A DNA stretch of 43,503 bases from an uncultured Candidatus Saccharibacteria bacterium (GCA_964631935.1 CAZWAV010000001.1:70979-114481), one strand, 5' to 3'. Positions 618 through 27,181 are shown, numbered from the stretch's first letter. A program made the numbers and translations. The notes: a model not told the origin generated them from the sequence alone.

Positions 618-628
618 TGTGATATAAT
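618..628 (+). promoter_or_regulatory. Extended -10 promoter (TGaTATAAT) ending 6 nt before the ATG at 635; implies a leaderless or near-leaderless mRNA
   Basis: tgtgatataat, then agccta, then ATG. No Shine-Dalgarno sequence is possible in this space. Confidence 0.45.
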
Positions 629-634
629 AGCCTA

Positions 635-3526
635 ATGCGTTCAATTTTTAACCCCAAATATATTATATTGTCAGTTTTTTCTGCTTGTTTGTTGATTACC
701 ACTAACGCTTTTGCCACTAATGTAACTATAGGTAATAATCCTTGGTATGGTGTTGCAGTAGGAAGCAAGGTTTATGTAATTGCGCAAGGAGAACAGCAAG
801 TAGTTGTCATTGATTCTAATACTGATACTGTTATTGCAAATATAAATGTTGGACTTGGGCCATATTCTATGAGTCTAGTAGGAAATAAAATGTATGTTTT
901 GAACTCTACTGATAATAGTGTTTCTGTTGTTAATACAGTCACCGATACAGTTATTACTACAATTACCGTTGGTGGCTCACCTCAATTTTCTGCTGTTGCT
1001 GGTGATAAAGTTTATGTAGTAAATACTGGAAGTGATACGGTTTCTGTTATTGACTCTAATACAGATACAGTATCCACTACTATTTCAGTTGGAAGCCAGC
1101 CATACTTCCCTGTAGTTGCTGGTAATAAAGTATATGTAACTAATCAAGGAAATAATACAGTTTCTGTTATTAGTACTGTTACAAATACAGTTGTCGCCAC
1201 AATTCCAGTAAATGGTCCAGGTTTTTCTGCTGTTGTAGGTAATAAGATTTATGTTGAAAATGATGTTGATTATAATATGAAAGTCATTGATTCAACTACT
1301 GACACAATTATTGCTACCATTCCTGTAGGTACCAACATGCAATATACACCAATAGCTATAGGTAATAAGCTTTATATTAGTAATGATCAGTCTAGTACTG
1401 TCTCTGTGATTAATACAGCAACTAATACCTTAATGGCGACAATCCCTGTTGGTGATGGCGCTTATTTTTTACAAGGGTTAGGTACTCATGTTTATGTTGC
1501 AAATCAAAATAGTGATTCTGTTTCTGTTATTGATTCTAATACTAATTCAGTTATCGATACCATAGCTGTTGGAAGTCAGCCTATTATTGCTATTCCGGCT
1601 GGGCATAAGGTTTACGTTGCAAACAATATTAGCCTTTTTGTGTCTGTAATCGACGACAACACCATCCCTTCTCAACTCCCAAACCTCACCTCTTTCAGCA
1701 CCTCAAGTTCAAGTGGAACATATACCACAGGTAATACTATAACCATCACAGCCAACTTCGGCACTACAATTCAAGCAGGTAGCACAATGACAGTCCTTCT
1801 TAATTCAGGAACCTCAGTAGTATTGAATAATGTATCAGGTACAACAATATCAGGAACATATACAGTCCAATCGGGCGATTCATCACCTGATCTTGCTATT
1901 CGAAGCATCACCTCAGCTAACGTCTCTGATGGCGCTCATACTCGTACATCATATTCCTTACCATCATCTCAAGGTTCATTTACTGCGGAAAACTCATTCA
2001 TCACTCGTAGTCTAGGGGATACAAAGAACATCATTATCAACACACAACCAATAACAATCACAACCGGCTCTCACCCATACCAAGTCTCACAAGCAATTAA
2101 CGGATTCCTTTATGTTGCTAACCAAGGAGCAGGAACTGTATCTGTCATAGATATTGCAAGTGGATCACTTGCAACTACAATTTCAGTTGGCTCTGAGCCA
2201 TATGGTTTAGCCCTCTCAGGTACTACACTATATGTTGCTAATACTGGTAGCAATACAGTATCAGCTATCAATACAGCTACGAATACAGTGATAGCTACAA
2301 TATCTGTTGGTGTTAAACCATACTATGTCGCCACCATCGGTACCAACGTCTATGTCACTAACGGTGCATCAAACACAGTCTCAGTCATTAATTCAAATAC
2401 AAATCTTGTAACAGCGACTATCCCCGTCGGTTCATACCCAAGAGGTATCAAAGCACATGGTACTGATTTATATGTTGCCAACTATGGAGACCCAAACTAT
2501 TCAGGAGGGAACTATATATCGGTCATCAATTCTCTTACAAATACAGTATCCGCTAATATTTTTCTTCCTGTAGGATCTGATGGTCCACGAGGAGTTACTG
2601 TTCTTGGAACAAAAGCCTATGTTACAAACTTTAGATCAAACAATGTTTCAGTAATTAATACTGCCACAAACACCATCACAGCAACTATTTCTGTAGGTAT
2701 GGGGCCTAGAGGTATCGTTGGTGTAGGAACAAATATATATGTTGAGAACTTCGATGATGGAACAATATCAATTATTGATACTAACTCAAATACTGTTACT
2801 TCTACTATCGATGTTGGCTCTTCTCCTGCAGGTATGGGAGTATCAGGAACGGATATTTATGTAAGTGCTTTTCAAGATGATGAGGTAAGGGTGTTGGATA
2901 GTACGACTGGATTATTAAAATTAACCACAGCACCTGGTGCTCCTACTTCCGTTTCTGCAAGTCCTGATAATGGCCAAGCTTCTGTTTCCTTTACTCCTCC
3001 TACCTCTAATGGTGGATCTGCTATTACTTTATACACTGTGACATCTTCACCTGGATCTATTACTGCTACTGGTGCATCTTCTCCAATTACTGTAACTGGG
3101 CTTACAAATGGTACTCCTTATACATTTACAGTAACTGCTACTAATAATGCTGGAACAAGTACTGCGTCATCTCCCTCATCTGCCGTTACTCCAAGTGGTC
3201 CGTCTGGTGGAAGACACTACCCGGCCCCAACCCCAGAACAACCTCAGATAAAAACAGTAGATCATTACTCTCCAATTATTAATAGTATTAAATTTACAAA
3301 GTACATAGGCCCTAAAAATCCTAAGAGTGAAGTGAAGGAATTGCAATCATCGCTCAATATTATTTTAACTTCAAAGCTTGTTAAGCTGTTAAGTGTCGAC
3401 GGAGTTTATGGTAGAAACACTATATCTGCGTTAAAGCTATTCCAAAAAGAAAATAATCTAAAAGCAGATGGTATCTTTGGTCCAAAGACTAGGGAGGTTA
3501 TTAATAAGATTTTAGCAACTAAATAA
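635..3526 (+). CDS. Secreted multidomain surface protein: two YVTN-type beta-propellers, Ig-like linker, fibronectin-III domain, C-terminal peptidoglycan-binding domain
   Basis: N-terminal signal peptide (LLITTNAFA/TN). About 15 copies of a ~40-aa unit (G.xP..xAxxGxK[VL]YVxNxxSxTVSVIDxxTxTV). FN3-like APGAPTSVSASPDNGQASVSFTPP...GTPYTFTVTATNNAG. C-terminal DGVYGRNTISALKLFQKENNLKADGIFGPKTREVI resembles PG_binding_1. Confidence 0.85.
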   Translation: MRSIFNPKYIILSVFSACLLITTNAFATNVTIGNNPWYGVAVGSKVYVIAQGEQQVVVIDSNTDTVIANINVGLGPYSMSLVGNKMYVLNSTDNSVSVVNTVTDTVITTITVGGSPQFSAVAGDKVYVVNTGSDTVSVIDSNTDTVSTTISVGSQPYFPVVAGNKVYVTNQGNNTVSVISTVTNTVVATIPVNGPGFSAVVGNKIYVENDVDYNMKVIDSTTDTIIATIPVGTNMQYTPIAIGNKLYISNDQSSTVSVINTATNTLMATIPVGDGAYFLQGLGTHVYVANQNSDSVSVIDSNTNSVIDTIAVGSQPIIAIPAGHKVYVANNISLFVSVIDDNTIPSQLPNLTSFSTSSSSGTYTTGNTITITANFGTTIQAGSTMTVLLNSGTSVVLNNVSGTTISGTYTVQSGDSSPDLAIRSITSANVSDGAHTRTSYSLPSSQGSFTAENSFITRSLGDTKNIIINTQPITITTGSHPYQVSQAINGFLYVANQGAGTVSVIDIASGSLATTISVGSEPYGLALSGTTLYVANTGSNTVSAINTATNTVIATISVGVKPYYVATIGTNVYVTNGASNTVSVINSNTNLVTATIPVGSYPRGIKAHGTDLYVANYGDPNYSGGNYISVINSLTNTVSANIFLPVGSDGPRGVTVLGTKAYVTNFRSNNVSVINTATNTITATISVGMGPRGIVGVGTNIYVENFDDGTISIIDTNSNTVTSTIDVGSSPAGMGVSGTDIYVSAFQDDEVRVLDSTTGLLKLTTAPGAPTSVSASPDNGQASVSFTPPTSNGGSAITLYTVTSSPGSITATGASSPITVTGLTNGTPYTFTVTATNNAGTSTASSPSSAVTPSGPSGGRHYPAPTPEQPQIKTVDHYSPIINSIKFTKYIGPKNPKSEVKELQSSLNIILTSKLVKLLSVDGVYGRNTISALKLFQKENNLKADGIFGPKTREVINKILATK
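1664..2920 (+). repeat. Paralogous cassette copy 1 (Ig-like linker plus second propeller), shared with 4568..5821
   Basis: Protein colinear and highly similar from IPSQLPNLTSFST... to ...TTGLLK. Long near-identical nucleotide runs, e.g. atcggtaccaacgtctatgtcactaa. Confidence 0.8.
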
Positions 3527-3529
3527 TAA

Positions 3530-6500
3530 ATGAAAAATATATTTCTTACAAAAAAATTTTTTGTTGCCATTGTATTTCTTTTGTGTTTTTTTGCTTCTAC
3601 TGAACATGTTTTTGCGGATATAAATATTGGTTCTGGGCAAAAGTATGTAACCTTAGTAGGCAACAAAATATATACCTCCAATAATGATAATACAATATCT
3701 GTTATAAATACCACCAATGACTCAGTCATAAAAACCATTGGATCAGTTAGTTCTGGATATATGACCTCTGTAGGAAATAAATTGTACGTTGCTGGTACTG
3801 CTGGAAATGTTATAACTGTAATAAATACTTTGACAGATACTGTTTCATCAACAATAAATGTGAGTAATTCACCCTTTTATATCTCTGTTTGGGGGACAAA
3901 ATTATATGTAAATCATTACGATGGTACTAATAATCCGCATATTATTACAGTTATTAATACTAATACAGATGCAATTACTACTACAATTACAGGATTGAAT
4001 CAACTTTACTATACGTATTCATTGGGGGATAAAGTCTATGTAAGCAATTCGGGCTCAAATTCTATTTCAATAATAGACGCAATAAACGATACAATATCTA
4101 CTATTATTGGTTCCGTACAGTCACCAGTCAGTTTTAAATCTATAGGAACTAAATTATTCATAGGTAATGGAACTCTTACTAATACTAGCGTTCTTGATAC
4201 TGTCAACAATAGTATTTCTAATATATCAGAGCCAGGTGTTTCTACGGCAGGATCTTTATGTGGCATGGGGACAAAAATTTATAAAATGAATCTAGGCAAT
4301 TCTATGTCTGTAATTGATGCTATTAATAATACAGTAAGTTCGAATATCACAGTGGGAAATTCTCCATCTCAGTGTATAGTACTTAACTCTAAGGTATATG
4401 TAATAAATGCAAGTAGTAATACTGTATCAGTTATTGACACTAATACAGATACCGTTGTTGATACTATCTCAGTAGGCTCTTCTCCACAATCCTTAGTTGC
4501 TTTAGGTAATAAAATTTATGTAGAATCCTTGTCGAGTGCTTTTGTGTCGGTCATTGACACAACAACTATCCCTTCTCAACTACCCAACCTTACTTCTTTC
4601 TCAACCAATACACCATCTGGTCCGTATGATACGGGAGACTCTATAACTATCACAGCCAACTTCGGCACTACAGTTCAAGCAGGTAGTACCATGACAGTTC
4701 TTCTTAATTCTGGAACATCTGTGGTGTTAAATAATGTCTCCGGGTCAACTCTTTCTGGAACATATACAGTCCAAGCAGGAGATGCAACTCCCGATCTTGC
4801 CATTAGAAGCATCACATCAGCATCTGTCTCAGATGGTACTCACACAAGAACATCATACTCACTACCGTCATCTCAAGGTTCATTTACTGCGGAAAACTCA
4901 TTCATCACTCGCAATCTTGGAGATACAAAGAACATCAATATAGGTTCATATGAAAAGATTAATGTAGGCTCAAACCCATACCAAATCTCTACAGCTATCA
5001 ATGGATACCTCTACGTTGCCAACCAAGGTGCTGGTACTGTCTCGGTCATCAACCAAGCAACCGGTGCACTCACTCAAACCATCACCGTGGGTTCTGAGCC
5101 ATATGGACTTGCTTCGGTTGGTACACAACTCTATGTTGCCAATACCGGAAGTGACACGGTGTCTGTCATTGATACTACAACCAACACAGTCACGACAAGT
5201 ATTTCTGTTGGTGTCAAACCATACTACGTCGCAGTCATCGGTACCAACGTCTATGTCACTAATGGTGCATCAAACACCGTCTCCGTCATAAACAGTGCCA
5301 CAAATACGGTCACAGCAACGATTCCCGTTGGTTCATATCCACGCGGCATCAAAGCCTATGGCACTGACCTCTATGTTGCCAACTACGGAGATCCTAACTA
5401 TTCAGGAGGGAACTATATATCTGTTATTAACTCACTTACTAATACAGTCTCAAACTACATCATCACCCCTGCAGGTTCTGACGGTCCCCGTGGTGTCACC
5501 GCGCTAGGATCAAATGTTTACGTAACCAATTTCCGCTCAAACAATGTCTCTGTCATCAATACAACAACCAAAGCAATCACTGCAACCATACCAGTCGGCA
5601 CGGGCCCTCGTGGAATCACAGGATTAGGCAGCAAGCTCTACGTCGAGAACTTCGACGATGGTACCATATCTATAATAGACACGAACTCAAATACCGTCAC
5701 CAGCACTGTTGACGTCGGTCACTCACCAGCAGGTATGAGTATTGTTGGTACTGACATATACATCTCACTCTTCCAAGATGATGCACTTCGCATCTTAGAT
5801 ACAACGACAGGACTACTAAAAGAAGACTCCAAACCCATATCTAAAACACTACCATCTGTTTCATTTGAAGGTAATACGGCAACTTTGTCAGGAGAAATTA
5901 TTGCCATAGGTAATTCAAATGTTATTACTAGGGGTTTTGAGTATGGAACTACTACATCTTATGGTACAACAACCATAGAAAGTGGTTCATTTTCTGCTGG
6001 TACATTTAGCGCTGATGCCGAAGGTCTCATTAGTGGAACTACTTACCATTTTCGTAGTTATGCAACAAGTTCTTTGGGTACAGGTTATGGTAATGATATG
6101 ACTTTTGTTTCCTCAGCCTCTACCTATACTTTGGTTGGGCCATCAAGCGGACTCAAAGATACTGAATCTGAGGTATTCACAGTCACTCCAAATGGTAACT
6201 TTATTGGTAATGTTACTATCACACCTTCAGGTGGTGGACTCACTAATCCAATAAACCTAGCTTTCTCATCTGCTGATCCTCAAACTTTTACTATAACTCC
6301 TACACTATCAGGTACTGTTACTCTAACGGCAACAAATGATGGAGGTCTTACTGATCCAGGAGAGGTTGAGTATGTGGTTTTAAATACATACTGGTTCACT
6401 AGTTACAATAATCAGTCACCGAACGATCTCTCCAATTATTGGACTAACGAAGGTCTTAATGAACAAGCTACATCTTTACCTCTACCGACAGATGTTTTAA

Positions 6501-8485
6501 ATATAGCCCAGGATTCGATATATGGAGGAACCGCAAAATTAAATGGGAGTGCTAAAAATTCTGGTATTATTAGTGGTAACGCTATTTTTAATGGTGACTA
6601 TTCTGAAAATTTAGGAACTATAATAGGAAACAAAATCCGCCGTTATCTTTCTAATACCACTACCACAAGAAATAATACTAAGTGGATTGTGGTTGCTGAC
6701 GGGGCGGTCGTAGATATCACTAATAGCGCATATGATTCCCAGTCTACTTTTTTTCGAATGAATGGAGGATCATTTACGCCAAGTCAAATATACCACTTCT
6801 ATGTTAATGATGGTTCTATTTCATCACCATCAAGCTATACGGTTGACGGCGACCACTCCTCTGAAATTCTCCCCACTTTTAATTTAGATGAAATATATGT
6901 TGATGCTAACATTAGATTTAATGGAAATATTGTTTTTAATGGTTCATCGCAAAATAATGGAATAGTAATTGGTAATGCAATCTTTAAAGATAATTCTGTC
7001 AATAATTCAATAGTTAACGGCGATTCTATTTTTTATGGTGACTATTCTGAAAATTTAGGAACTATCTCAGGAGATAAAATCCGCCGTTACCTTTTTGATA
7101 CTACTACTACAAAAGATTTTGATGGATGGACCGTTGTTGCTGATGGAGCAGTAGTAAATGTCGAAGGTGCAATAATAGGGTCAGCAACATTAACCACTGA
7201 AAATTTCGGTTCTTTTGTGTATGCCCATCCATTGTCAGCTGTATTGAGCAACTCAAATTTGTTAACTATTACTTATAGTCAAATATTAGATCCTGGTTCA
7301 ATTCCAAGTACTAATGATTATCAAATTTTAGTAAATGGATCTACATCTATTGGTATTGATAATATTAATATTGATGGAGATAAAGTATTGATTACCATTA
7401 ACGGTAGTGTTAATGAAAATGATGTTGTAAAATTAACTTATATTATTGGAGAATCTCCAGTAAGAGTAGATGCTGACAAAAATACTGGTAATCTTATTAA
7501 TTATACAGTCGTAAATTCTATAATTTCCTCAGCCTCTACCTATACTTTGGTTGGGCCATCAAGCGGACTCAAAGATACTGAATCTGAGGTATTCACAGTC
7601 ACTCCAAATGGTAACTTTATTGGTAATGTTACTATCACACCTTCAGGTGGTGGACTCACTAATCCAATAAACCTAGCTTTCTCATCTGCTGATCCTCAAA
7701 CTTTTACTATAACTCCTACACTATCAGGTACTGTTACTCTAACGGCAACAAATGATGGAGGTCTTACTGATCCAGGAGAGGTTGAGTATGTGGTTAATTA
7801 TATAGATACTACTGCACCAACACTTACAGAAGTCACTCCTGTTTCCACACCAAGCACCACCACCACACCTACATATACCTTCTCATCTAGTGAAGCAGGT
7901 TCTATTAGTTATGGTGGTGCATGTACTTCAAGTACAACCTCTGCAACAACAGGAAACAACACCATCACTCTCGCTACTCTCACTCCTGGTACCTACACTA
8001 ACTGCACAATTACTGTCACCGACAGTTCTCTAAATGCTTCAACTCCTCTTACTATCACTACGTTTACTATAACCCAACCTTCTTCAGGTGGTGGGGGAGG
8101 TGGTTCTTCTGGTGGCTCAATACCTCGTACACCTGATCCGATAGCTTGTCCTACTGGTGTAATGCTTGACTTACTCACAGGTAAACGCTGTACTGTATTT
8201 ACTACACCACCGCTAACTACAATTAACCCTAATACTCCTGATAGACTAGCATCTATTTTTGATCGCAATCTAAAACTTAAAATGAAAGGCTCTGATGTTA
8301 AAGCACTTCAACAATATCTAAACACAACACTAAATCTACCTAAACCACTTATTATAGATGGAATATTTGGCAAGTATACATTAAATGCTTTAAAGATATT
8401 CCAGAAAGATAACAATTTAATACCCGATGGTATCTTTGGCCCGAAGACTAAGGAAGTTATGAACAAGATTTTAGCAGCTAAATAA
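3530..8485 (+). CDS. Giant secreted surface protein (1651 aa): two YVTN-type beta-propellers, FN3/Ig-like modules with internal duplications, Gly/Ser linker, C-terminal peptidoglycan-binding domain
   Basis: Starts 3 nt after the previous stop. Signal peptide (FFASTEHVFA/DI). Same YVTN repeat unit as the upstream gene. Duplicated Ig-like module SSASTYTLVGPSSGLKD...EVEYVV. GGGGGGSSGGS linker. C-terminal DGIFGKYTLNALKIFQKDNNLIPDGIFGPKTKEVM resembles PG_binding_1. Confidence 0.85.
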   Translation: MKNIFLTKKFFVAIVFLLCFFASTEHVFADINIGSGQKYVTLVGNKIYTSNNDNTISVINTTNDSVIKTIGSVSSGYMTSVGNKLYVAGTAGNVITVINTLTDTVSSTINVSNSPFYISVWGTKLYVNHYDGTNNPHIITVINTNTDAITTTITGLNQLYYTYSLGDKVYVSNSGSNSISIIDAINDTISTIIGSVQSPVSFKSIGTKLFIGNGTLTNTSVLDTVNNSISNISEPGVSTAGSLCGMGTKIYKMNLGNSMSVIDAINNTVSSNITVGNSPSQCIVLNSKVYVINASSNTVSVIDTNTDTVVDTISVGSSPQSLVALGNKIYVESLSSAFVSVIDTTTIPSQLPNLTSFSTNTPSGPYDTGDSITITANFGTTVQAGSTMTVLLNSGTSVVLNNVSGSTLSGTYTVQAGDATPDLAIRSITSASVSDGTHTRTSYSLPSSQGSFTAENSFITRNLGDTKNINIGSYEKINVGSNPYQISTAINGYLYVANQGAGTVSVINQATGALTQTITVGSEPYGLASVGTQLYVANTGSDTVSVIDTTTNTVTTSISVGVKPYYVAVIGTNVYVTNGASNTVSVINSATNTVTATIPVGSYPRGIKAYGTDLYVANYGDPNYSGGNYISVINSLTNTVSNYIITPAGSDGPRGVTALGSNVYVTNFRSNNVSVINTTTKAITATIPVGTGPRGITGLGSKLYVENFDDGTISIIDTNSNTVTSTVDVGHSPAGMSIVGTDIYISLFQDDALRILDTTTGLLKEDSKPISKTLPSVSFEGNTATLSGEIIAIGNSNVITRGFEYGTTTSYGTTTIESGSFSAGTFSADAEGLISGTTYHFRSYATSSLGTGYGNDMTFVSSASTYTLVGPSSGLKDTESEVFTVTPNGNFIGNVTITPSGGGLTNPINLAFSSADPQTFTITPTLSGTVTLTATNDGGLTDPGEVEYVVLNTYWFTSYNNQSPNDLSNYWTNEGLNEQATSLPLPTDVLNIAQDSIYGGTAKLNGSAKNSGIISGNAIFNGDYSENLGTIIGNKIRRYLSNTTTTRNNTKWIVVADGAVVDITNSAYDSQSTFFRMNGGSFTPSQIYHFYVNDGSISSPSSYTVDGDHSSEILPTFNLDEIYVDANIRFNGNIVFNGSSQNNGIVIGNAIFKDNSVNNSIVNGDSIFYGDYSENLGTISGDKIRRYLFDTTTTKDFDGWTVVADGAVVNVEGAIIGSATLTTENFGSFVYAHPLSAVLSNSNLLTITYSQILDPGSIPSTNDYQILVNGSTSIGIDNINIDGDKVLITINGSVNENDVVKLTYIIGESPVRVDADKNTGNLINYTVVNSIISSASTYTLVGPSSGLKDTESEVFTVTPNGNFIGNVTITPSGGGLTNPINLAFSSADPQTFTITPTLSGTVTLTATNDGGLTDPGEVEYVVNYIDTTAPTLTEVTPVSTPSTTTTPTYTFSSSEAGSISYGGACTSSTTSATTGNNTITLATLTPGTYTNCTITVTDSSLNASTPLTITTFTITQPSSGGGGGGSSGGSIPRTPDPIACPTGVMLDLLTGKRCTVFTTPPLTTINPNTPDRLASIFDRNLKLKMKGSDVKALQQYLNTTLNLPKPLIIDGIFGKYTLNALKIFQKDNNLIPDGIFGPKTKEVMNKILAAK
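4568..5821 (+). repeat. Paralogous cassette copy 2, shared with 1664..2920
   Basis: Same as copy 1. This copy has the stronger C-ending codon bias (acc, atc, gtc, aac, tac, ctc). Confidence 0.8.
6108..6379 (+). repeat. Intragenic direct repeat A, copy 1 (272 bp, identical to 7524..7795)
   Basis: Base-by-base comparison shows no mismatch over 272 bp. Offset is 1416 bp (472 codons, in frame). Encodes SSASTYTLVGPSSGLKDTESEVFTVTPNGNFIGNVTITPSGGGLTNPINLAFSSADPQTFTITPTLSGTVTLTATNDGGLTDPGEVEYVV. Confidence 0.9.
6591..6715 (+). repeat. Intragenic diverged repeat B, copy 1
   Basis: atggtgactattctgaaaatttaggaactat and aaaatccgccgtta recur exactly 444 bp downstream. Protein NGDYSENLGTIIGNKIRRYLSNTTTT..W.VVADGAVV. 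Confidence 0.75.
7035..7159 (+). repeat. Intragenic diverged repeat B, copy 2
   Basis: Same frame, 444 bp (148 codons) after copy 1. Protein YGDYSENLGTISGDKIRRYLFDTTTT..WTVVADGAVV. Confidence 0.75.
7524..7795 (+). repeat. Intragenic direct repeat A, copy 2 (272 bp, identical to 6108..6379)
   Basis: See copy 1. The flanking bases differ (g/a upstream, t/a downstream), which defines the repeat ends. Confidence 0.9.
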
Positions 8486-8490
8486 TAAAT

Positions 8491-8500
8491 TTGTTATAAT
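8491..8500 (+). promoter_or_regulatory. Extended -10 promoter (TGtTATAAT) ending 6 nt before the MgtC-family ATG
   Basis: ttgttataat, then aaaaac, then ATG at 8507. Confidence 0.4.
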
Positions 8501-8506
8501 AAAAAC

Positions 8507-8992
8507 ATGGAAAACATATTTGATCAGGGTACGCTTGATATAGTATTACCACTTTTTATAGCATTAATCTTGGGTATGATTATTGGCACAGAGAGAGTCT
8601 GGGCTCACAAGACAGCTGGCATGCGAACATATGCTCTTGTATCTATGGGTTCTGCGCTTTTCGTTCTCGTGTCTAGTGAGATGGTTAAACAATACGCAGG
8701 ATTCTCTGGTATGAATCCGTTGCATATAGTTGCTCAGATAATAGTGGGTGTTGGATTTATCGGAACAGGATTAATATTTACTAAAGATAATAAGTTGATG
8801 GGTCTTACTACTGCTACTGGCTTGTGGGTCTCTGCAGGTATCGGTATGGCTTGTGGATTTGGATTGTATAAAATTGCGATTGTAGCAACTCTCCTTACTC
8901 TATTTATATTTATTGTATTATGGTTCCTAGAAGAGCAACTAAAAGAAACTAAATTTTTTAAAGATTCCCATCCTGAAGATTTTGGTAAATAA
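8507..8992 (+). CDS. MgtC/SapB family membrane protein
   Basis: LILGMIIGTERVWAHKTAGMRTYALVSMGSALF matches the MgtC N-terminal signature (G.ER....K.AG.RT..LV..G.A). About four to five hydrophobic helices. Confidence 0.8.
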   Translation: MENIFDQGTLDIVLPLFIALILGMIIGTERVWAHKTAGMRTYALVSMGSALFVLVSSEMVKQYAGFSGMNPLHIVAQIIVGVGFIGTGLIFTKDNKLMGLTTATGLWVSAGIGMACGFGLYKIAIVATLLTLFIFIVLWFLEEQLKETKFFKDSHPEDFGK

Positions 8993-9024
8993 GAAAAGCC
9001 CCGATTGACGGGGCTTTTCTGTTT
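8993..9024 (+). terminator. Rho-independent terminator
   Basis: gaaaagcccc / gattgac / ggggcttttc: 10-bp stem followed by a T-rich tail. Confidence 0.8.
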
Positions 9025-9050
9025 AGTCTTTTTGGTATAGTATAAGGAAT

Positions 9051-10697
9051 ATGCAATCAGATGAAGTTCGCAGTAGATTCCTCAAATTTTTTGAATCGAA
9101 AGGTCACAAGATTTTACCATCATCTTCTTTAATTCCAGAAGGTGATATTTCTGTATTATTCACAACAGCGGGAATGCAGCAGTTTAAACCCTACTATGGA
9201 GCACCAGAAAATGCTATACGAGATTTTGGAAATAAAAATATAGTCACAGTGCAGAAATGTGTCCGTACTGGAGATATAGATGAAGTTGGGGATGATACAC
9301 ATCTATCATTCTTTGAAATGCTAGGAAACTTTTCTTTTGGTGGTTATGGACGCAAAGAAGCCATATCTTATGCTCATGAATTTATAACCAAAGAACTAGG
9401 ACTACCTATTTCATATGTGACTATATATAAAGGTGAGGGTATTGTTCCCAAAGATGAGGAATCAAGAAAAATTTGGGCAGAGATTGATTCGAATCTAGAT
9501 ATCCGTGAAGATGGTAAAGATGTTTTCTGGGGTCCGACGGGTGACTCTGGTCCTTGTGGTCCGACCACAGAGATATATTGCAAAAATGCTAATGGCGAAG
9601 ACGTGGAAATTTGGAATATAGTTTTCAATGAATATTTCTGTGATGGTTCAAGAGAAAATTTAGACAAAGGACAGGCTTCGCTTACAAAATTAGAAACATT
9701 GGGAATTGATACGGGTATGGGATTTGAGAGATTGCTTGCGACAGTACAGAATAAAAAAAGTGTATACGGAACTGATCTTTTTAATAGTGAGGATACTAAA
9801 GAAGAACGTATTGTTGCCGACCATGTAAAGACAGCACTCTTTATGATCTCTGATGGACTAACTCCATCAAACACAGGCAGAGGTTATGTACTTCGTAGGT
9901 TAATAAGACGAGCTGTGAGATTCTCAAAAGACTCGCTTTCAAAAGAAATCGAAAAAATAAAAAAGATTTATAATGGTGTATACAACCTTGATGATAAAGG
10001 AGAAATAGAAAAAGAAGAAAATAAATTTAGGATTACTCTCGATAATGGTCTAAAAGAATTTGAAAAAGGAGTTGATCCATTTATATTGGCTACTACATAT
10101 GGTTTTCCGATAGAACTTACTGAAGAATTAGCAAAAGAAAAGGGAATTGTAATAGATAGAGAAGAATTTGATAAAAAAATGGCTGAGCACCAGAAACTTT
10201 CACAGACCGCTTCAGCAGGAATGTTCAAAGGTGGTCTTGCGAATCATAATGAGCAGACTATCAAGCTACATACTGCACATCACCTACTTCTTGCTGGACT
10301 CCAAGCGATAGTTTCTCCTGGTATTAAACAACGGGGAAGTAATATCACAGAAGAGCGATTGCGTATAGATTTCCTCTGTGATCACAAGCTCACCGATGAA
10401 GAGAAGAAGGGTGTTGAGGATTGGGTAAATGACAAAATATCACAAGAGCTTGATATGGTTCGCAAAGAAATGCCGCTTTCTGAAGCAGAAAAGATTGGTG
10501 CCGAAATGGAGTTCGGGGCAAAGTATCCAGAGACTGTCTCTGTGTATATGATTGAAGATAAAAATGGTAATGCTATATCAAAAGAATTTTGTGGTGGGCC
10601 ACATGTATCAAATACAAGTGAACTTGGTCACTTCAAAATACAGAAAGAAGAAGCTGTTGCCCAAGGCATACGTCGTATTAAAGCAATACTAGAATAA
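9051..10697 (+). CDS. alaS: Alanine--tRNA ligase, short form (catalytic, reduced tRNA-recognition and editing domains; no C-Ala domain)
   Basis: FLKFFESKGHKILPSSSL, FTTAGMQQFKP, FFEMLGNFSFGGY, GMGFERL, editing-site HTAHHLL and CGGPHV. The protein ends at GIRRIKAILE, only 548 aa. Confidence 0.9.
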   Translation: MQSDEVRSRFLKFFESKGHKILPSSSLIPEGDISVLFTTAGMQQFKPYYGAPENAIRDFGNKNIVTVQKCVRTGDIDEVGDDTHLSFFEMLGNFSFGGYGRKEAISYAHEFITKELGLPISYVTIYKGEGIVPKDEESRKIWAEIDSNLDIREDGKDVFWGPTGDSGPCGPTTEIYCKNANGEDVEIWNIVFNEYFCDGSRENLDKGQASLTKLETLGIDTGMGFERLLATVQNKKSVYGTDLFNSEDTKEERIVADHVKTALFMISDGLTPSNTGRGYVLRRLIRRAVRFSKDSLSKEIEKIKKIYNGVYNLDDKGEIEKEENKFRITLDNGLKEFEKGVDPFILATTYGFPIELTEELAKEKGIVIDREEFDKKMAEHQKLSQTASAGMFKGGLANHNEQTIKLHTAHHLLLAGLQAIVSPGIKQRGSNITEERLRIDFLCDHKLTDEEKKGVEDWVNDKISQELDMVRKEMPLSEAEKIGAEMEFGAKYPETVSVYMIEDKNGNAISKEFCGGPHVSNTSELGHFKIQKEEAVAQGIRRIKAILE

Positions 10698-10698
10698 T

Positions 10699-11244
10699 AT
10701 GAAGCCTTTCTCAAAAGACATAGTTATTGTGGATTTTGAAGTCACTGATTTTGATTTTGTAAAAGGTGAACCAGTACAGATTGGTGTCCTTGTCTTAGAT
10801 AAAGATACACTAGAGGAAAAGGGGAGTTTCGTTTCGTGGATTAAAGTAGATCAAGAATTACATACCGACCTCCCGGGCCTAAAATGGGCAACTATATCAT
10901 GCTCAGATATTGAAGAGATAAAGAAAGCACCTAGTCTATCAGAAGTTGCAAGTGAGATTGTAAAAATACTTCCAGAGACGTATTCACTCTGTGCTTGGAA
11001 TGCTAATTTTGATTTCAATTTTTGGAAGAAGTTATTAGCGACAGTAGATAAAAATATAAGATCAACTGGTATCATAGACCTCTGGACTCTTGCCTATATA
11101 AAATTATTAAAAGATCCAAATTATAACGGAGATTTTAAATCTGAATCCGTCTTCCAATATTTCGGAGCAGAACCTCGTCTAAAGCATGATGCTCTAGGAG
11201 ATTGCAAAATAGAAGCCATGGTTTTCAAAAATTTGATAAAATAG
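10699..11244 (+). CDS. DEDDh-type 3'-5' exonuclease (DnaQ/epsilon-like fold)
   Basis: Exo I-like IVIVDFEVT, Exo II-like AWNANFDFNF, Exo III-like HDALGDCK. The start is 1 nt after the alaS stop. Confidence 0.65.
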   Translation: MKPFSKDIVIVDFEVTDFDFVKGEPVQIGVLVLDKDTLEEKGSFVSWIKVDQELHTDLPGLKWATISCSDIEEIKKAPSLSEVASEIVKILPETYSLCAWNANFDFNFWKKLLATVDKNIRSTGIIDLWTLAYIKLLKDPNYNGDFKSESVFQYFGAEPRLKHDALGDCKIEAMVFKNLIK

Positions 11245-11284: not shown

Positions 11285-12463
11285 ATGGCATTATTTTCAT
11301 CATCAAAGAAAGAAAGAATTGTGGCTATTTTCGACATAGGCTCTGGTAGTGTGGGTGGAGCCATTACTCGTATTCCAAGCGATGTAAAAGATATACCAAC
11401 TATTATAAAATCTGCCCGTACTGAAGTACCTGTTCGTGATGAACTCAAGTTTGATGTTCTGCTTGAAGACATGCTTGTGGCCCTCAACGCTACAGCTACA
11501 TCGCTATATGAAGGTAAGGTTGGTGCTCCAGATGAGATTGTGTGCGTATTAGCATCCCCATGGTATGTCTCTGAGACTCGTATAATAAAGATTGATAGAG
11601 ATCACTCATTTGTATTTACCAAAAAGATAGCTGATGAAGCATTACAGAAAGAAATATCTGCCCTCAAATCTGTATACGATAATAAATACGCTAATACCAA
11701 AAGTGTCCCTGAGGTAATAGAGAACCATGTTATGGGTGTTTCTCTTAATGGCTATCTTGTAGATGAACCAATCGGCAAGAAAAGTAAATCTATAGAAATG
11801 CATATGGTCATTTCTCTTTCACCAAAAGTATGCCTAGATAAGATACGCAAAACTCTCTCAAACACCTTTCATCATATGCCGGTATCATTCTCTTCGTTTG
11901 TGATGTCTTCTTACTTAGCTGTTCGTGATAAGTATGTAGTTCCTGAGTCTTATTTATTGCTCGATATCGGTGGAGAGGTAACAGATGTGGCTATTATAAA
12001 TAGAGGAGTATTAAAAGCCTCACTATCATTTCCTTTTGGAAAAAACACATTCTTTAAATATATTTATACAAAGATGGAGATCGAGCTACGTGACGCTAAA
12101 GAACTCTTCAATCTGTTTACCACTGATGCTCTAGCAGTTAAGAGAAAACAAAAAGCTGAGCTCCTATTTAAATCAATCGAGAATTCATGGGGTGAAGCAT
12201 TCCGTGCGTGCATTGGTACATTGCCACACACGCTTAATCTACCCAATACAATATTTGTCACAGCCGATGCCGACATAAGAGGGTGGTTTGTGAATGTTGT
12301 CCGCAATGAACCATATATACAGTCGATGGTTGCTGACCACAAGGCTACGGTTATAACTCTAGAAGGCCCAGAATTTCTCACAATGTGTAGTGTGAAAGAT
12401 GGTACATGTGACCCATTCCTCATGGTTGAAGCGATAGGATTTATGAGAAAATTAAGAAAATAA
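11285..12463 (+). CDS. Actin-fold (ASKHA) ATPase, FtsA/PilM-like
   Basis: Phosphate-1 like IVAIFDIGSGSVGGAI and phosphate-2 like LLLDIGGEVTDVAII at the spacing expected for FtsA/PilM/MreB-type proteins. I could not see a clear FtsA C-terminal amphipathic helix. Confidence 0.6.
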   Translation: MALFSSSKKERIVAIFDIGSGSVGGAITRIPSDVKDIPTIIKSARTEVPVRDELKFDVLLEDMLVALNATATSLYEGKVGAPDEIVCVLASPWYVSETRIIKIDRDHSFVFTKKIADEALQKEISALKSVYDNKYANTKSVPEVIENHVMGVSLNGYLVDEPIGKKSKSIEMHMVISLSPKVCLDKIRKTLSNTFHHMPVSFSSFVMSSYLAVRDKYVVPESYLLLDIGGEVTDVAIINRGVLKASLSFPFGKNTFFKYIYTKMEIELRDAKELFNLFTTDALAVKRKQKAELLFKSIENSWGEAFRACIGTLPHTLNLPNTIFVTADADIRGWFVNVVRNEPYIQSMVADHKATVITLEGPEFLTMCSVKDGTCDPFLMVEAIGFMRKLRK

Positions 12464-12465
12464 TT

Positions 12466-13890
12466 ATGGCAAAAAAAGTAATGGAAGACATGAAATCAAA
12501 AGGTGTGAGGATTACAAAGATTTTAAAGAAAGATGTAGATCCGACATTTAAAGAAAAGCCGGCACAAAAACCGGAGAAAGTTGTAGTAAAAGAGGAAGAA
12601 GAAATTATTGTTCCTAAAAGCATGATTCCAGAAAGACCCAAACCAGAATCGGGAAATGAAAATCACTTAGAGACAAGGGTATATGTAAACCAGCAAGAAA
12701 TGGCTAAAAGAATGTACTCTAGTCCTAGAACTAAAAGCAAGTCTGGTTTAATCAAAAAGCCAATATTGATAATGCTACTTGCTTCAATTTTTATTGGTGG
12801 AGTTTATTTCATCTGTGATAAATTCCAGAATGCAAAAATTTCCGTTATTGCTAAACAGCAATCATTCAACCTTGATCACGCATCATTTAGTGCGTCTACT
12901 TCATCAGAAGCACCTGTGCACTTTGAATTAATGATAGTTTCCAATGAAGAGTATAAAGATTTCAATCTCAGTAATCCACAAAATGTATCCATAAAAGCTC
13001 ACGGAGAAGTGACTCTATATAACGAGAACTCTACGAAGCCCCAAAAGTTATTAATCCACACATTCCTTGCCGACGAAAAAGGTAAAACTTATCAGACAGA
13101 TCAAGCTGTGACGATACCAGGGTACACACTCGACGCATCTAAGAAAATTATCCCAGGTAAAATAGACATTGGTATTACCGCATTTCTTGCTGGAGATTCA
13201 TATAATGGTACACCAAAGACTTTAACCATTACTGGATTCAAAGGTACAGCAAAAGCTAAGACTGTATATGCTAAATTAAAGACACCGCTTACTGGCGGAG
13301 CTCAAGGTACAGCTTATACTCTAAGTCCTACAGATAAAGGTACTGTTACGGCCTTTGCGCAGTCTACATTTAAAAGCAATCTCATGAATAAAGTGAATGC
13401 CGAGGTACCAGCAGGGTACATATTGTATCCAAGTGCTATGAATTTTACCTATAACACAGAGCAGGATGTTCTATCTCCGACACCAAATGCAAAAGTTAAA
13501 GTCAGTGGTACCATTTCTTCAATAATCCTGGATAAAAAAGATCTATCAAAAGCATTAGTGAAGAGTTTGTTACCAAGTATTACAGCAAAAGAATTAGAAG
13601 AAGTTAGTATCCCCGATATATCAAAACTAACATTTAATTTCAAAAATTCCGGCCAATTAATAAGTAAAGATTTAAAACAAGTTGATTTTAATTTAACTGG
13701 TCCCATCAATGCTATCTGGGCACCAGATGTTGCGACACTACAGACAAGTATCTTGGGGGTTAAGAAAGCTGATCTCATACAAATATTTAAAACTGACCCA
13801 GGAATTACTTCTGCGACAGCTCGTATTTTCCCACCATGGCAGGGAACTGTGCCTATGAATGAGAATAAGATACATATAGAAGTGAAGTAA
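12466..13890 (+). CDS. Bitopic membrane protein: Lys/Glu-rich cytoplasmic N-terminus, one TM helix, ~350-aa extracytoplasmic beta-rich domain (function unknown)
   Basis: Start is 2 nt after the upstream stop. Only hydrophobic segment is ILIMLLASIFIGGVYFI. The external domain (GEVTLYNENSTKPQKLLIHTFLADEKGKTYQTDQAVTIPG...) loosely recalls baseplate-J-like domains; this is unverified. Confidence 0.6.
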   Translation: MAKKVMEDMKSKGVRITKILKKDVDPTFKEKPAQKPEKVVVKEEEEIIVPKSMIPERPKPESGNENHLETRVYVNQQEMAKRMYSSPRTKSKSGLIKKPILIMLLASIFIGGVYFICDKFQNAKISVIAKQQSFNLDHASFSASTSSEAPVHFELMIVSNEEYKDFNLSNPQNVSIKAHGEVTLYNENSTKPQKLLIHTFLADEKGKTYQTDQAVTIPGYTLDASKKIIPGKIDIGITAFLAGDSYNGTPKTLTITGFKGTAKAKTVYAKLKTPLTGGAQGTAYTLSPTDKGTVTAFAQSTFKSNLMNKVNAEVPAGYILYPSAMNFTYNTEQDVLSPTPNAKVKVSGTISSIILDKKDLSKALVKSLLPSITAKELEEVSIPDISKLTFNFKNSGQLISKDLKQVDFNLTGPINAIWAPDVATLQTSILGVKKADLIQIFKTDPGITSATARIFPPWQGTVPMNENKIHIEVK

Positions 13891-14045: not shown

Positions 14046-14750
14046 ATGAAAAAATTATTTTTTATATCAGTTGCATTAGTTGTAACTGGTTTAAGTTCAT
14101 TCAGTTGCAAGAAAAGCAAAGCTGAAGATCTGCTACAGATAGCAACGCCTACAGTGGAATCTACTAGTAACGGTGCCACATTTTTAAAATCCGCATGGGT
14201 TACTGAATTTATGGTAAGGACCTGGATCGGCTCCGATGGCATGACTCCAACAAAGGCGGAATATCAACTGGGTGTAAGTATCCCTGCTGACTCGTTTGAC
14301 CTGTACATCCCTCAAAGCATTAAATTCATTCCTGGTGCAACAGGTGGCAACAGTACAGCAATTCCTTACACCAAACTTTCGGCTGGAGCATATACCGGTA
14401 TGATCAACTTTGCTGTGTTGGATTCATCTGGTAATTATCTCGATGCTGCATCAGGTTTGAATGCTGCAGGAAATGGCAGACTTGGTACAGAAGGTGTAAA
14501 TATTACTTATCAAATGACATTTTCACCAAATGTAATTGTTGATCAATCAGGAATGGTAAAGATACCGAAAGGTACCATCGGCCGTGTTGATATCACAATT
14601 TTTATTACTGAGCCCGGTACAAATGAGGTGAAAGGTAAATACCAAATCGGAGTACTTTCAATTAATGCTTCAAAAACACCCGTTGCAAGTAAAATAACAG
14701 CGTGGCCTAATTTATTTAAGACCCAGCTGCAAAACCCTGCCTTTAATTAA
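14046..14750 (+). CDS. Probable lipoprotein or secreted protein of unknown function
   Basis: MKKLFFISVALVVTGLSSFSC has a signal peptide with Cys at position 21 (lipobox-like). I recognised no family. Codon usage differs from neighbours (several CTG Leu codons and one AGG Arg codon). Confidence 0.65.
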   Translation: MKKLFFISVALVVTGLSSFSCKKSKAEDLLQIATPTVESTSNGATFLKSAWVTEFMVRTWIGSDGMTPTKAEYQLGVSIPADSFDLYIPQSIKFIPGATGGNSTAIPYTKLSAGAYTGMINFAVLDSSGNYLDAASGLNAAGNGRLGTEGVNITYQMTFSPNVIVDQSGMVKIPKGTIGRVDITIFITEPGTNEVKGKYQIGVLSINASKTPVASKITAWPNLFKTQLQNPAFN

Positions 14751-23723: not shown

Positions 23724-23816
23724 GCAAGGATAGTAGTTCTTCGATATGGGTTTTATTTGGTTCCCAAAGTAGATATGCAATATTGTCTTTTCTGGGAACC
23801 AAAACAAAACCTAAAC

Positions 23817-24500
23817 ATGAAAAAAATAATTTATCTTATCATTCCAGTGATATTTTTGGCAGCATATAAAAATGCTCCTAAAAAACCGAGATCAGGAACT
23901 TTATTTGGGATTGATATATCCGAATGCCAACCCGGTAATATAAACTGGAAAAAAGTTAAAAGCTCTAAACACAAAGTTAAATTTGTCATTATGCGTTCAA
24001 CTATGGGTGATGACCGCACAGATGATAAATTTAACCAAAGGTTTAAAGAGGCAAAAGCTGCTGGGTTTATAGTGGGTGCTTACCACTATTATGATCCGAA
24101 TGAAAATTCGGTGAAACAGGCATACAATTACCTCTCTGCTATTAAACTTAAAAAAGGCGATTTCATCCCTATCGTTGACCTGGAAAGATTGAGTAGAATT
24201 CAATCAACAGACAAACTAAAGAAAGGACTGAAGAATTGGCTTGATATTGTTGAAAAGCATTATCATGTTAAACCAATACTTTACACTAGCTATAGTTTTT
24301 ATCTGGACAACCTCGCAAAAGAATTTTCCAATTATCCGCTCTGGGTTGCTACGTACTCTGTTGAAAAAAGGAGTACTGGGGTTGTAAAATCTTGCGAAAT
24401 TCTCCAGTTTGCTTGCAGGGTTCCTGTTCAAGGCATCAGAGGGAGAGTTGATGGCAATGATATTAAAAGGGCAAAGCTAAAAAAGCTACTCTTACAATGA
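23817..24500 (+). CDS. Secreted glycoside hydrolase family 25 muramidase (lysozyme)
   Basis: Signal or anchor peptide MKKIIYLIIPVIFLAAY. GH25 blocks GIDISECQ.GNINW, VKFVIMRSTMG, AGFIVGAYHYY, PIVDLE, PILYTS and LWVATY. Start placed at the ATG before the hydrophobic segment, not the ORF-track start at 23757. Confidence 0.8.
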   Translation: MKKIIYLIIPVIFLAAYKNAPKKPRSGTLFGIDISECQPGNINWKKVKSSKHKVKFVIMRSTMGDDRTDDKFNQRFKEAKAAGFIVGAYHYYDPNENSVKQAYNYLSAIKLKKGDFIPIVDLERLSRIQSTDKLKKGLKNWLDIVEKHYHVKPILYTSYSFYLDNLAKEFSNYPLWVATYSVEKRSTGVVKSCEILQFACRVPVQGIRGRVDGNDIKRAKLKKLLLQ

Positions 24501-26004: not shown

Positions 26005-26129
26005 GCGAAGCAAATTATTTTATGAAAAAATGTCTGGCCGAGCTTCCAAAAGAATTTGGCGAGGAGATCCGAGGACTTTTTTCAGAATATAATTTGGGAA
26101 GCTTTTATTATAAATGATACAATAAACTT

Positions 26130-27149
26130 ATGGATAAAAATTTACACACACTAGAATTTATATTAAAGAATTACAAGAACTTCAATTCACGTGCGACTCG
26201 TGATGCTACTATTGCATATTGGAAACATATTGAGAAAGGAGGCAAGATGTTCTGGGCAGTAGCAGGAGCTATGTCTTCAGCACAGCTTGGCATAACTCTT
26301 GCTCCCGCAATTAGAAATGGTCTTATTTCTGGAATGTCTGTGACTGGTGCGAATCTTGAGGAATCACTTTTCCGATTAGTCGCTCATGATAGTTATAAAG
26401 ATTTTCCAGATTATAGATATTTTACAAAAGATGATGATACAAAAATTCTTGAAAATCGTATGCGTCGTGTTACTGATACAAGTATTCCTGAAGATGAAGC
26501 TTTCCGTGCGGTAGAGAAGCATATCGTTCCTGTGTGGAAGAAAGCTACAGAAGATGGTACTCGCAAATTCTGGCATGAATATTTCTATGATTTAATTCAA
26601 GCCATAGATAAAGATAAGCACGAAGGCAAGGCTGAAGAGTGCTGGCTACTTGCGGCAGCAGAGAATAATATCCCAATTGTTGTACCTGGATACGAAGATT
26701 CTACATTTGGAAATATCTTTGCTTCACATGTGAAGATGGGTGATGCAAGCGCATCTATAGCAAAGTCTGGTATCGAATACATGGGAGCATTCTATGATCA
26801 ATATCAAGAGCTCTCAAAAGGAGAGGGAATTGGATTCTTCCAGATTGGTGGAGGTATAGCTGGAGATTTCCCGATATGTGTCGTGCCTTCTCTTAAATAT
26901 GATATGGAGCAGGAGGCTAAGCCATGGGCTTACTTCTGTCAGATATCTGACTCAACTACTTCTTATGGATCATACTCTGGAGCGACACCTAACGAGAAGA
27001 TTACTTGGGATAAACTCACAAAAGATACACCAATGTTCGTCGTCGAATCCGATGCAACAATCGTAGTACCTCTTATGCTTACTGCTCTTATGGAATGCAA
27101 AGCAAACCCTAGTGAAGCAAACAAATTGATTGAAAAATATTTAGCTTAA
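26130..27149 (+). CDS. Deoxyhypusine synthase-like protein (bacterial DHS homologue; possible homospermidine-forming enzyme)
   Basis: SVTGANLEESLFRLV, VVPGYEDSTFGN, FQIGGGIAGDF, and YSGATPNEKITWDKL (equivalent to the DHS E-A-V-S-W-G-K catalytic-lysine block). Confidence 0.8.
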   Translation: MDKNLHTLEFILKNYKNFNSRATRDATIAYWKHIEKGGKMFWAVAGAMSSAQLGITLAPAIRNGLISGMSVTGANLEESLFRLVAHDSYKDFPDYRYFTKDDDTKILENRMRRVTDTSIPEDEAFRAVEKHIVPVWKKATEDGTRKFWHEYFYDLIQAIDKDKHEGKAEECWLLAAAENNIPIVVPGYEDSTFGNIFASHVKMGDASASIAKSGIEYMGAFYDQYQELSKGEGIGFFQIGGGIAGDFPICVVPSLKYDMEQEAKPWAYFCQISDSTTSYGSYSGATPNEKITWDKLTKDTPMFVVESDATIVVPLMLTALMECKANPSEANKLIEKYLA

Positions 27150-27152
27150 ATT

Positions 27153-27179: not shown

Positions 27180-27181
27180 AA

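Follow-up and report, generated by a model that had tools for sequence, protein, structure and literature searches.

Tandem genes for putative wall-anchored double-propeller surface proteins in a Parcubacteria-type genome

Introduction

What role is played by two giant, apparently secreted repeat proteins encoded side by side in a small-genome bacterium? The question is raised by a stretch of 43,503 nucleotides from an uncultured Candidatus Saccharibacteria bacterium (GCA_964631935.1, CAZWAV010000001.1:70979-114481), referred to here as the window, in which the co-directional genes A (635..3526, plus strand, 963 amino acids) and B (3530..8485, plus strand, 1651 amino acids) take up about 18% of the sequence and the remaining genes are of the housekeeping type. 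To our knowledge, partner recognition and attachment in bacteria of the candidate phyla radiation (CPR) are largely unknown, and type IV pili of Saccharibacteria are the only factors to have been tested.

The original prediction, made from the sequence alone, described an operon of two secreted YVTN beta-propeller proteins ending in peptidoglycan-binding domains and read them as wall-anchored stalks with an adhesive or host-recognition function. That observation is confirmed as a whole, and its interpretation is partly supported. The architecture and the wall anchoring of A and B are well founded, while an adhesin or host-contact role is one that we infer. We propose, at a probability of roughly 0.6, that A and B arose by tandem duplication and are Sec-exported surface proteins, non-covalently tethered to the peptidoglycan of their own cell, with a binding or recognition (adhesin) role. 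Less specifically, it is highly probable that both are secreted and lie at the cell surface in association with the wall.

Results

Domain architecture and predicted structure of A

Open reading frame (ORF) calls bore out the two adjacent genes with their predicted lengths and share of the window, the gap between them amounting to 3 nucleotides (TAA-TAA-ATG). Both reading frames are uninterrupted, with no frameshift found in A or B, and the exact products of both genes are on record in two contigs (54 kb, JGI 3300045313; and 360 kb).

Gene A encodes, in order, a putative signal peptide, an 8-blade YVTN propeller, a SwmB-type immunoglobulin (Ig) domain, a 7-blade YVTN propeller and an fn3 domain, after which a disordered linker leads to a PG_binding_1 domain. 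The NCBIfam YVTN repeat model TIGR02276 matched A at E 1.5e-132 (431 bits, 13 stretches) and B at E 1.9e-94 (309 bits, 9 stretches), against a cut-off of 27.85. A hidden Markov model (HMM) of the blade, built from A, resolved these matches into 8 + 7 blades in each protein, in agreement with the two blocks of about 7-8 copies of the original prediction; the blades of B propeller 1 are degenerate (E 1e-4 to 1e-11). Together with the YVTN repeat, the fn3, SWM_repeat and PG_binding_1 models all gave matches.

AlphaFold2, run on full-length A with 92 aligned sequences as input, returned a confident model (mean predicted local distance difference test, pLDDT, 91.3; predicted template modelling score, pTM, 0.81). 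Downstream of the putative signal peptide (amino acids, aa, 1-27; 635..715), propeller 1 (aa 28-340; 716..1654) is the variable propeller and was modelled with 32 strands across residues 27-340, equivalent to 8 blades. An inter-propeller Ig-like domain of the SwmB/TIGR02059 type (aa 341-473; 1655..2053), highly conserved and modelled as a beta-sandwich at 351-468, connects it to the conserved propeller 2 (aa 474-759; 2054..2911), for which 28 strands (474-755) give 7 blades. The blade HMM supports both propellers, which were modelled at pLDDT 95-98; their closure was judged by strand count and confidence, not by coordinates. The original prediction of four propellers therefore corresponds to two modelled propellers in A, of 8 and 7 blades by strand count, and to the same number in B as counted by HMM and through homology to A. 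Beyond the head lie an fn3 domain (aa 769-850; 2939..3184; Pfam PF00041, E 2.6e-10; modelled strands 771-844), a disordered Gly/Pro-rich linker (aa 858-883; 3206..3283; pLDDT <50) and a three-helix PG_binding_1 domain (aa 897-962; 3323..3520), the helices of which span 897-910, 927-939 and 950-962 at pLDDT 85-97.

Propeller 2 of A found its best PDB sequence match in 1L0Q (phmmer E 5.7e-47, residues 491-737, 34% identity), and this 7-blade structure was also the top Foldseek match of the A model (E 4e-24). Near-invariant motifs occupy the same position in successive blades of propeller 2 (EPYG, KPYY, YPRG, GPRG, GPRG and ENFDDG), an Arg or Tyr recurs after the GxxP motif of the blades in A, and FQD is a further conserved motif. 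Three named propeller families were considered as identities for the propellers and rejected: YncE (96.6 bits against an NCBIfam cut-off of 400), hydrazine synthase beta (128.8 bits against 560) and the PQQ-associated PQQ_ABC_repeats (227.8 bits against 287.3). On these scores, the sub-threshold similarities to YncE, hydrazine synthase beta and PQQ proteins are generic repeat similarity only.

The long stalk and exact internal repeat of B

Gene B combines a head like that of A with a long stalk, a Gly-rich linker and PG_binding_1. The two proteins are collinear across residues 1-874, at 56% identity. Following a putative signal peptide (aa 1-29; 3530..3616), the head of B comprises propeller 1 with its 8 YVTN blades (aa 30-346; 3617..4567), the inter-propeller Ig-like domain (aa 347-476; 4568..4957) and the 7-blade propeller 2 (aa 477-761; 4958..5812), both propellers being assigned with the blade HMM. 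Divergence between A and B is concentrated at the N-terminus: propeller 1 is 37% identical, the Ig domain 82% and propeller 2 80%.

The stalk opens with an fn3-like domain (aa 765-859; 5822..6106), which has a weak Pfam match to Pur_ac_phosph_N (E 0.013) and homologous units in 3-9 copies in fn3/PF16656 proteins. Next come an Ig-like domain (copy 1; aa 860-950; 6108..6379), two putative beta-solenoid modules (aa 955-1235; 6392..7234), a SwmB-type Ig domain (aa 1236-1331; 7235..7522; Pfam SWM_repeat, E 2.7e-6, at about 1246-1310), a second Ig-like domain (copy 2; aa 1332-1422; 7524..7795) and an Ig-like domain starting with DTTAP (aa 1430-1530; 7817..8119), for which a weak PKD-like Pfam match was obtained and 64-79% identical modules occur at loci L005 and L010 of relatives. 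A Gly-rich linker bearing a CPxG...TGxxC motif by sequence reading (aa 1531-1580; 8120..8269) leads into the terminal PG_binding_1 domain (aa 1587-1644; 8288..8461). The Ig and FN3 stalk modules of the original prediction are thus present; those other than the A fn3 domain and the B SWM_repeat domain are recognised by weak Ig/fn3 Pfam matches.

An AlphaFold2 model of B residues 955-1345 (pLDDT 90.1) shows short, regularly spaced strands resembling a beta-solenoid, followed by an Ig domain. Foldseek and Pfam searches gave no confident Pfam, PDB or BFVD relative for the solenoid modules, Foldseek picking up the adjoining Ig part only, and the class of aa 955-1235 is best called probable beta-solenoid, as read from the strand pattern of the model alone. 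A pectate-lyase or tailspike fold was considered for these modules and set aside (Foldseek probability <0.25). They carry a conserved cap motif, YYFNNAVNTSP..LGNYW. The adjoining stalk Ig domain found its PDB matches in the S-layer protein SbsC (E 2.8e-4), followed by the Ig domains of Sap, SbsB and LdtMt2. Domain mapping placed the solenoid and SwmB modules at the N-terminus in most relatives, as opposed to the C-terminal stalk in B, which indicates that the module has been shuffled.

The two Ig copies are encoded by an exact repeat: positions 6108-6379 and 7524-7795 are identical over 272 nucleotides, with sharp borders that coincide with exactly one Ig domain (aa 860-950 and 1332-1422). All other internal repeats are 60-82% identical, compared with 100% here. 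Either a domain was duplicated or converted very recently, or the copy number of the intervening 1416-nucleotide unit is uncertain.

Export and wall anchoring

Signal peptides were called with a heuristic for n-, h- and c-regions. The N-termini of A and B both have a basic n-region, a hydrophobic core of 12-13 residues (Kyte-Doolittle 2.9 and 3.2) and an AxA/VxA-type site (AFA/TN in A, VFA/DI in B), as had been claimed for both proteins. In the AlphaFold2 model of A, residues 1-24 are unstructured (pLDDT <50) and the first strand begins at residue 27, which supports the call for A. By the same heuristic, 83 of the 96 relatives that start with Met have a similar signal-like N-terminus. Beyond the N-terminal segment, no second transmembrane-like segment was found in A or B. 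The mature proteins are acidic (isoelectric points 5.05 for A and 4.45 for B) and rich in Ser and Thr (26% in both), and A has no Cys.

At the other end, PG_binding_1 (PF01471) was matched above the gathering cut-off of 23 in both proteins: in A at 898-955 (42.8 bits, E 6e-11), where the model also supports the domain, and in B at 1587-1644 (48.2 bits, E 1.3e-12, or 4.7e-14 for the segment alone), so that the C-terminal peptidoglycan-binding domains stand as originally described. Both resemble the wall-binding domains of endolysins (PDB 7RUM, E 2e-7; 5NM7; PHROG endolysin families, E 1e-13). Searches of A and B for an LPXTG-like motif found none, and the two C-termini are PG_binding_1 domains, not of the sortase type; likewise, Pfam found no SLH domain in either protein, PG_binding_1 being carried instead.

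Two options had been left for the anchor: the wall of the producing cell, or that of a partner gripped from outside. The first is favoured and the second disfavoured. The window encodes MraY, FtsW/RodA and MurG, from which it follows that the producer makes murein. The C-terminal modules of relatives are swappable, and SLH, the classic self-wall anchor, is among them, which argues that the C-terminus attaches the protein to the envelope of the cell that makes it. Moreover, apart from this end only the signal peptide could attach the protein, and it is cleavable, which likewise argues for anchoring to the cell's own wall.

A family with a conserved double-propeller core

A search with A returned thousands of YVTN proteins, of which the top ~90 clusters (defined at 90% identity and mostly from Patescibacteria metagenome-assembled genomes, MAGs) are 35-60% identical and share the same core. 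This core, present in A and B and, by domain mapping, in about 85 of the top 100 homologues, consists of a collinear 8-blade propeller, a SwmB-type Ig domain with the motif ENSFITRNLGD.KNI, and a 7-blade propeller. Across the family, median identity rises from 40% in propeller 1 to 56% in the Ig domain and 64% in propeller 2. Relatives are named "YVTN family beta-propeller protein" or "SwmB domain-containing protein" and come from Candidatus Paceibacterota, Patescibacteria group and Falkowbacteria MAGs.

When genomes were scanned with a generic YVTN motif, the true family accounted for the top 11 of 79 loci, the rest being unrelated YVTN proteins (Methanosarcina, Streptomyces and others). These 11 best loci lie mostly in small-genome MAGs labelled Paceibacterota or Saccharibacteria, with two labelled Gammaproteobacteria and one "bacterium". 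A metagenome scan for strain variants of B recovered three relatives only, at 52-56% identity. Searching the inter-propeller Ig domain against 1.84 billion cluster representatives gave 795 proteins at E<=1e-3, which include giant proteins with up to 25 copies at ~31% identity and about 50 single-copy family members at >=50%; the latter number indicates that the double-propeller family is real but modest in size.

The C-terminal ends vary within the family. An iterated HMM search found a PG_binding_1-like domain in 52 of the 90 members, always at the extreme C-terminus, while in about 30 of the 90 the C-terminus is formed by two copies of a conserved repeat without a Pfam match, RLKGRLLLQVE..G..WYVD..G.RH...LGI.N.NL..I. 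Carriers include P0016, P0039 and P0083 (C-terminal ~130 aa), and the repeat is a candidate for an undescribed CPR wall-anchoring module. Relative P0078, the sole such case in the family, ends in SLH domains, and P0069 and P0070 have another helical C-terminal tail. Architectures similar to that of B are found in P0010, P0014 and P0020, and other MAGs (L009, L011) carry paralogues in tandem or close by. At locus L010, the family gene lies in two ORFs (6720-8843 and 8871-10913; 707 + 680 aa) split at the boundary of propeller 1 and the Ig domain, which may be a frameshift or a pseudogene.

The family is thus largely confined to CPR bacteria: its head is invariant, while its stalk modules and C-terminal wall anchors can be exchanged. 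The domain order, for which the original prediction knew of no characterised system, proves not to be singular, the core recurring in ~90 clusters and the peptidoglycan anchor in more than half of them. A literature search found no paper joining YVTN proteins with Patescibacteria or the candidate phyla radiation, and the double-propeller family therefore appears undescribed.

Genomic context and transcription

The adjacent alanyl-tRNA synthetase (AlaRS) is 77-91% identical to proteins of the Patescibacteria group, Candidatus Nomurabacteria, Parcubacteria, Paceibacterota and Minisyncoccia, which places the genome with the Parcubacteria/Paceibacteria-type CPR bacteria and agrees with the small-genome bacterium first suspected. 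Four relatives (AlaRS 91, 90, 89 and 85% identical; GCA_964502615.1 and GCA_039809245.1 are among them) keep the gene order yceG, methyltransferase, mnmA, mgtC, alaS. In all four, mnmA is directly followed by mgtC, and no trace of A was found in their 20-kb loci. This adjacency identifies the A-B pair as a lineage-specific 7.9-kb insertion, and hence as accessory rather than core equipment. The closest homologue of A, P0001 (58% identity, same architecture), is located between ftsW and murG, two genes that are adjacent in the present window; at L090 the A-like gene (4093-7098) has this setting, within the cell-wall synthesis cluster.

The GC content of A and B and their GC content at third codon positions (GC3) equal those of neighbouring genes, and no tRNA, integrase or transposase gene was found flanking the pair or among the window ORFs, so the insertion looks compositionally native. 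A phage or mobile origin was considered and rejected, given the native GC and GC3, the lack of mobile genes and the confinement of PHROG matches to the peptidoglycan-binding domain. Similar promoter-like strings at both ends of the insertion are too short for a target duplication to be called.

An extended -10 box, TGaTATAAT (620..628, plus strand), was read 7 nucleotides before the ATG of A, a leaderless-type spacing; no -35 match was found upstream of it, and nothing comparable precedes B. The range given in the original prediction, which starts at 618, includes this box. The following gene mgtC has a promoter-like box of its own, kept in relatives that lack the insertion, and the first strong terminator-like hairpin downstream (8992..9020, plus strand) comes after mgtC, with none between A, B and mgtC. 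Given the 3-nucleotide gap, the absence of an intergenic terminator and the box before A only, co-transcription of A and B is likely, and the operon of the original prediction is, from sequence signals, plausible. Shine-Dalgarno sequences are absent in 27 of 29 window genes, and their absence before B is therefore uninformative on coupling. TATAAT-type boxes stand 6-7 nucleotides 5' of the ATG in several genes, namely A (620-637), mgtC (8486-8509) and the genes at 11285 and 26130; together with the scarcity of Shine-Dalgarno sequences, this suggests widespread leaderless or Shine-Dalgarno-independent translation.

Discussion

Proposed mechanism

In the mechanism that we propose, the signal peptide would be cut after AFA in A or VFA in B, and the C-terminal three-helix PG_binding_1 domain, identified by fold and family, would bind the cell's own murein, the ligand expected of that family. 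The disordered Gly/Pro linker would then span the wall, and the stalk modules, a single fn3 domain in A and about seven modules in B including the two beta-solenoids, would keep the double-propeller head off the wall; because the stalks are so unequal, the paralogues would present their heads at different heights. A conserved interaction could take place on the Ig domain and propeller 2, where Arg/Tyr recurs at one blade position, and the fast-diverging N-terminal propeller 1 would give variable specificity. The ligand may be a partner-cell surface or an environmental polymer. Taken together, the tip varies, the core is conserved, paralogues have multiplied and presence differs between strains, a pattern expected of adhesins or recognition proteins.

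Several points weigh against this proposal. The solenoid modules sit at the N-terminal tip in most relatives, and propeller 1 is outermost for A and B, not family-wide. Close relatives lack A and B at the locus, so the function must be dispensable there or supplied from elsewhere. Codon adaptation (A 0.69, B 0.66) equals the window average and gives no mark of high expression; as a proxy for expression it is uninformative in this genome, where codon bias is weak.

A more specific version of the adhesin proposal is speculative and rather doubtful. The A-B insertion could be a partner-specificity cassette, in which two diverged 8-blade propellers at two heights address different partner ligands, the Ig domain and propeller 2 dock onto a conserved component of the envelope or of the partner, and gain, loss or relocation of the cassette sets the host. 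If this were true, cassette turnover among near-identical Parcubacteria genomes would set or switch the host to which an episymbiont can attach.

Alternative explanations

Among the alternatives, an S-layer or structural coat fares best, though we consider it unlikely. The heads would form a two-dimensional lattice above the wall, held by the PG_binding_1 anchor, and would serve envelope protection; the conserved core of Ig domain and propeller 2 could be the lattice contact. Such a coat would agree with the acidic, Cys-poor and Ser/Thr-rich composition of A and B, with the SLH anchor of one relative, with the likeness of the stalk Ig domain to domains of SbsC, Sap and SbsB, and with the annotation of the closest structure, 1L0Q, as an archaeal surface layer protein. 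On Parcubacteria cells S-layers have been observed (10.1101/2022.04.20.488981), and predictions of S-layer proteins exist for Paceibacterales (10.1101/2024.05.28.596244). In Methanosarcina, however, the main S-layer protein is a DUF1608 protein, different from the YVTN protein of the 1L0Q crystal structure. Also against a coat, the genes are missing from this locus in four close relatives and family members lie at differing loci, two paralogues of very unequal stalk length fit a single lattice poorly, and codon adaptation is merely average. Should A and B be ordinary structural coat components after all, their interest would be lower.

A wall-held extracellular enzyme or nutrient-scavenging receptor is a distinctly less probable use of the head, with propeller 2, for example, binding or degrading polysaccharide, or binding DNA as the YncE propeller does. 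CPR bacteria rely on imported building blocks, and propeller 2 shows strong conservation, including invariant motifs with Arg, Tyr and Asp, together with a sub-threshold likeness to YncE, hydrazine synthase beta and PQQ-associated propellers. Yet the scores for all enzyme families fall far under the curated cut-offs, no catalytic motif was identified in the head, and the best match in both structure and sequence is a non-enzymatic surface protein.

A reversed topology, with PG_binding_1 gripping the wall of a bacterial partner and the propellers or stalk holding the symbiont, is very improbable. Endolysin PG_binding_1 domains do bind murein from outside, but once the signal peptide is cleaved off, the protein would have no other link to its producer, which itself makes murein, and in relatives the anchor position is taken by SLH or another C-terminal repeat. 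Methanothrix and Methanospirillum, moreover, have no murein to grip. Cultured Paceibacteria have methanogenic archaea as their known hosts (PMC10936435), a point against the reversed topology, although the authors of the same study suggest that proteins with peptidoglycan-binding domains might act in host attachment.

Finally, there is only a slight chance that B is chimeric or of the wrong length through its exact 272-nucleotide repeat: short-read assemblers cannot count 1416-nucleotide units bounded by such a repeat, which is fully identical, sharply bordered and confined to exactly one Ig domain where the other internal repeats reach 60-82%, but an identical 1651-aa product is found in two contigs, the frame is continuous, every module of B has homologues in similar architectures (P0010, P0014, P0020), and the flanking segments can be joined through the 272-nucleotide repeat only.

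Significance

The locus points to a recurrent CPR surface-protein family with a swappable anchor, a variable stalk, a conserved core and a variable tip. Its usefulness is increased by a confidently modelled structure, by presence and absence at strain level on a syntenic backbone, and by domains small enough to express. The C-terminal PG_binding_1 domain and the RLKGRLLLQVE repeat appear to be general wall-tethering modules of CPR surface proteins, and as such help to annotate many giant CPR proteins now called hypothetical.

Other genes of the window

Several further genes merit mention. AlaRS (9051-10697) has 548 aa only; its relatives are named "alanine--tRNA ligase-related protein", and the short form is 77-91% identical across many Parcubacteria. 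In every relative examined, alaS and rnt are followed by two conserved genes of unknown function (392 and 474 aa; 11285-13890 in the window), the 392-aa product having a weak FtsA/actin-like match (E 0.003) and the 474-aa product an N-terminal transmembrane segment. Between the latter gene and infA, a 234-aa ORF (14046-14750) without a Pfam match has a lipoprotein-like signal peptide (MKKLFFISVALVVTGLSSFSC). Its position is empty in four of five loci of close relatives, with an uncalled gap of ~620 nucleotides in L086/L087, and the ORF, whose product would be exported, is possibly another small insertion specific to the lineage. A GH25 muramidase (23757-24500; Pfam E 3.9e-37) probably has its true start at the internal MKKIIYLIIPVIFLAAY, which would give it a signal or anchor sequence; judging from the sequence, it could be an exported lysozyme, in a genome of the episymbiont type, acting on the cell's own wall or on that of a partner. 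An Orn/Arg decarboxylase, a protein resembling deoxyhypusine synthase (PF01916) and a member of the arginase family are clustered at 24625-28069 and make up a polyamine pathway of the homospermidine type within this minimal genome.

Comparison with known systems

Among solved structures the closest is 1L0Q, a fragment of a Methanosarcina mazei "surface layer protein". Like A and B, it belongs to a secreted surface protein of several domains in which an Ig-type domain comes after a 7-blade YVTN propeller. It differs in being archaeal, in having one propeller per unit, in using PKD in place of the SwmB-type Ig domain and in having no PG_binding_1 anchor, whereas A and B have a propeller on either side of a conserved Ig domain, the first of them with 8 blades. 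The description of the 1L0Q family in 2002 reportedly noted archaeal proteins that combine propeller, PKD and beta-helix modules. The module set of A and B (YVTN propeller, Ig/PKD, beta-helix) is thus the toolkit of archaeal surface proteins, 1L0Q included.

Nor is the idea of host contact new for such proteins. Strain-specific PKD/YVTN surface proteins secreted by the ARMAN episymbiont Mia14 make up ~2.5% of its genome and have been proposed for cell-cell interaction (PMC5498576). Like A and B, these are very large, secreted, strain-specific proteins with YVTN propellers, taking a notable share of the genome of an ultra-small, host-dependent cell; they differ in being archaeal, in anchoring without murein and in their CARDB fusions, and the likeness is one of description. 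In archaea-parasitising Paceibacteria, extracellular proteins with peptidoglycan-binding domains, of unknown function, are among the most highly expressed genes (PMC10936435). They belong to the same bacterial class and share the signal peptide, Ig-like modules and peptidoglycan-binding domain, but the example PMX_810_sub_00350 (692 aa), compared by annotation only, is listed in the supplementary table without mention of YVTN repeats or a propeller.

Other resemblances concern single parts. The inter-propeller Ig domain and one stalk domain of B are of the type found in SwmB, a cell-surface protein, and in other TIGR02059/SWM_repeat giants; those proteins string together as many as 25 copies and lack the YVTN double-propeller core, whereas A and B use single copies as connectors. 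Leptospira Lp49 (3BWS) is also secreted and has an Ig-like domain beside a 7-blade propeller (Foldseek E 2e-18, TM-score 0.62 on the target), but it is only 17% identical, has one propeller and no wall anchor, and its function is likewise unknown. The PG_binding_1 domain of endolysins (7RUM, 5NM7) directs a lytic enzyme to the wall, while that of A and B has no catalytic domain attached. Set beside these systems, A and B stand out as a double-propeller form of the YVTN/Ig/beta-helix surface proteins that is bacterial and anchored to murein.

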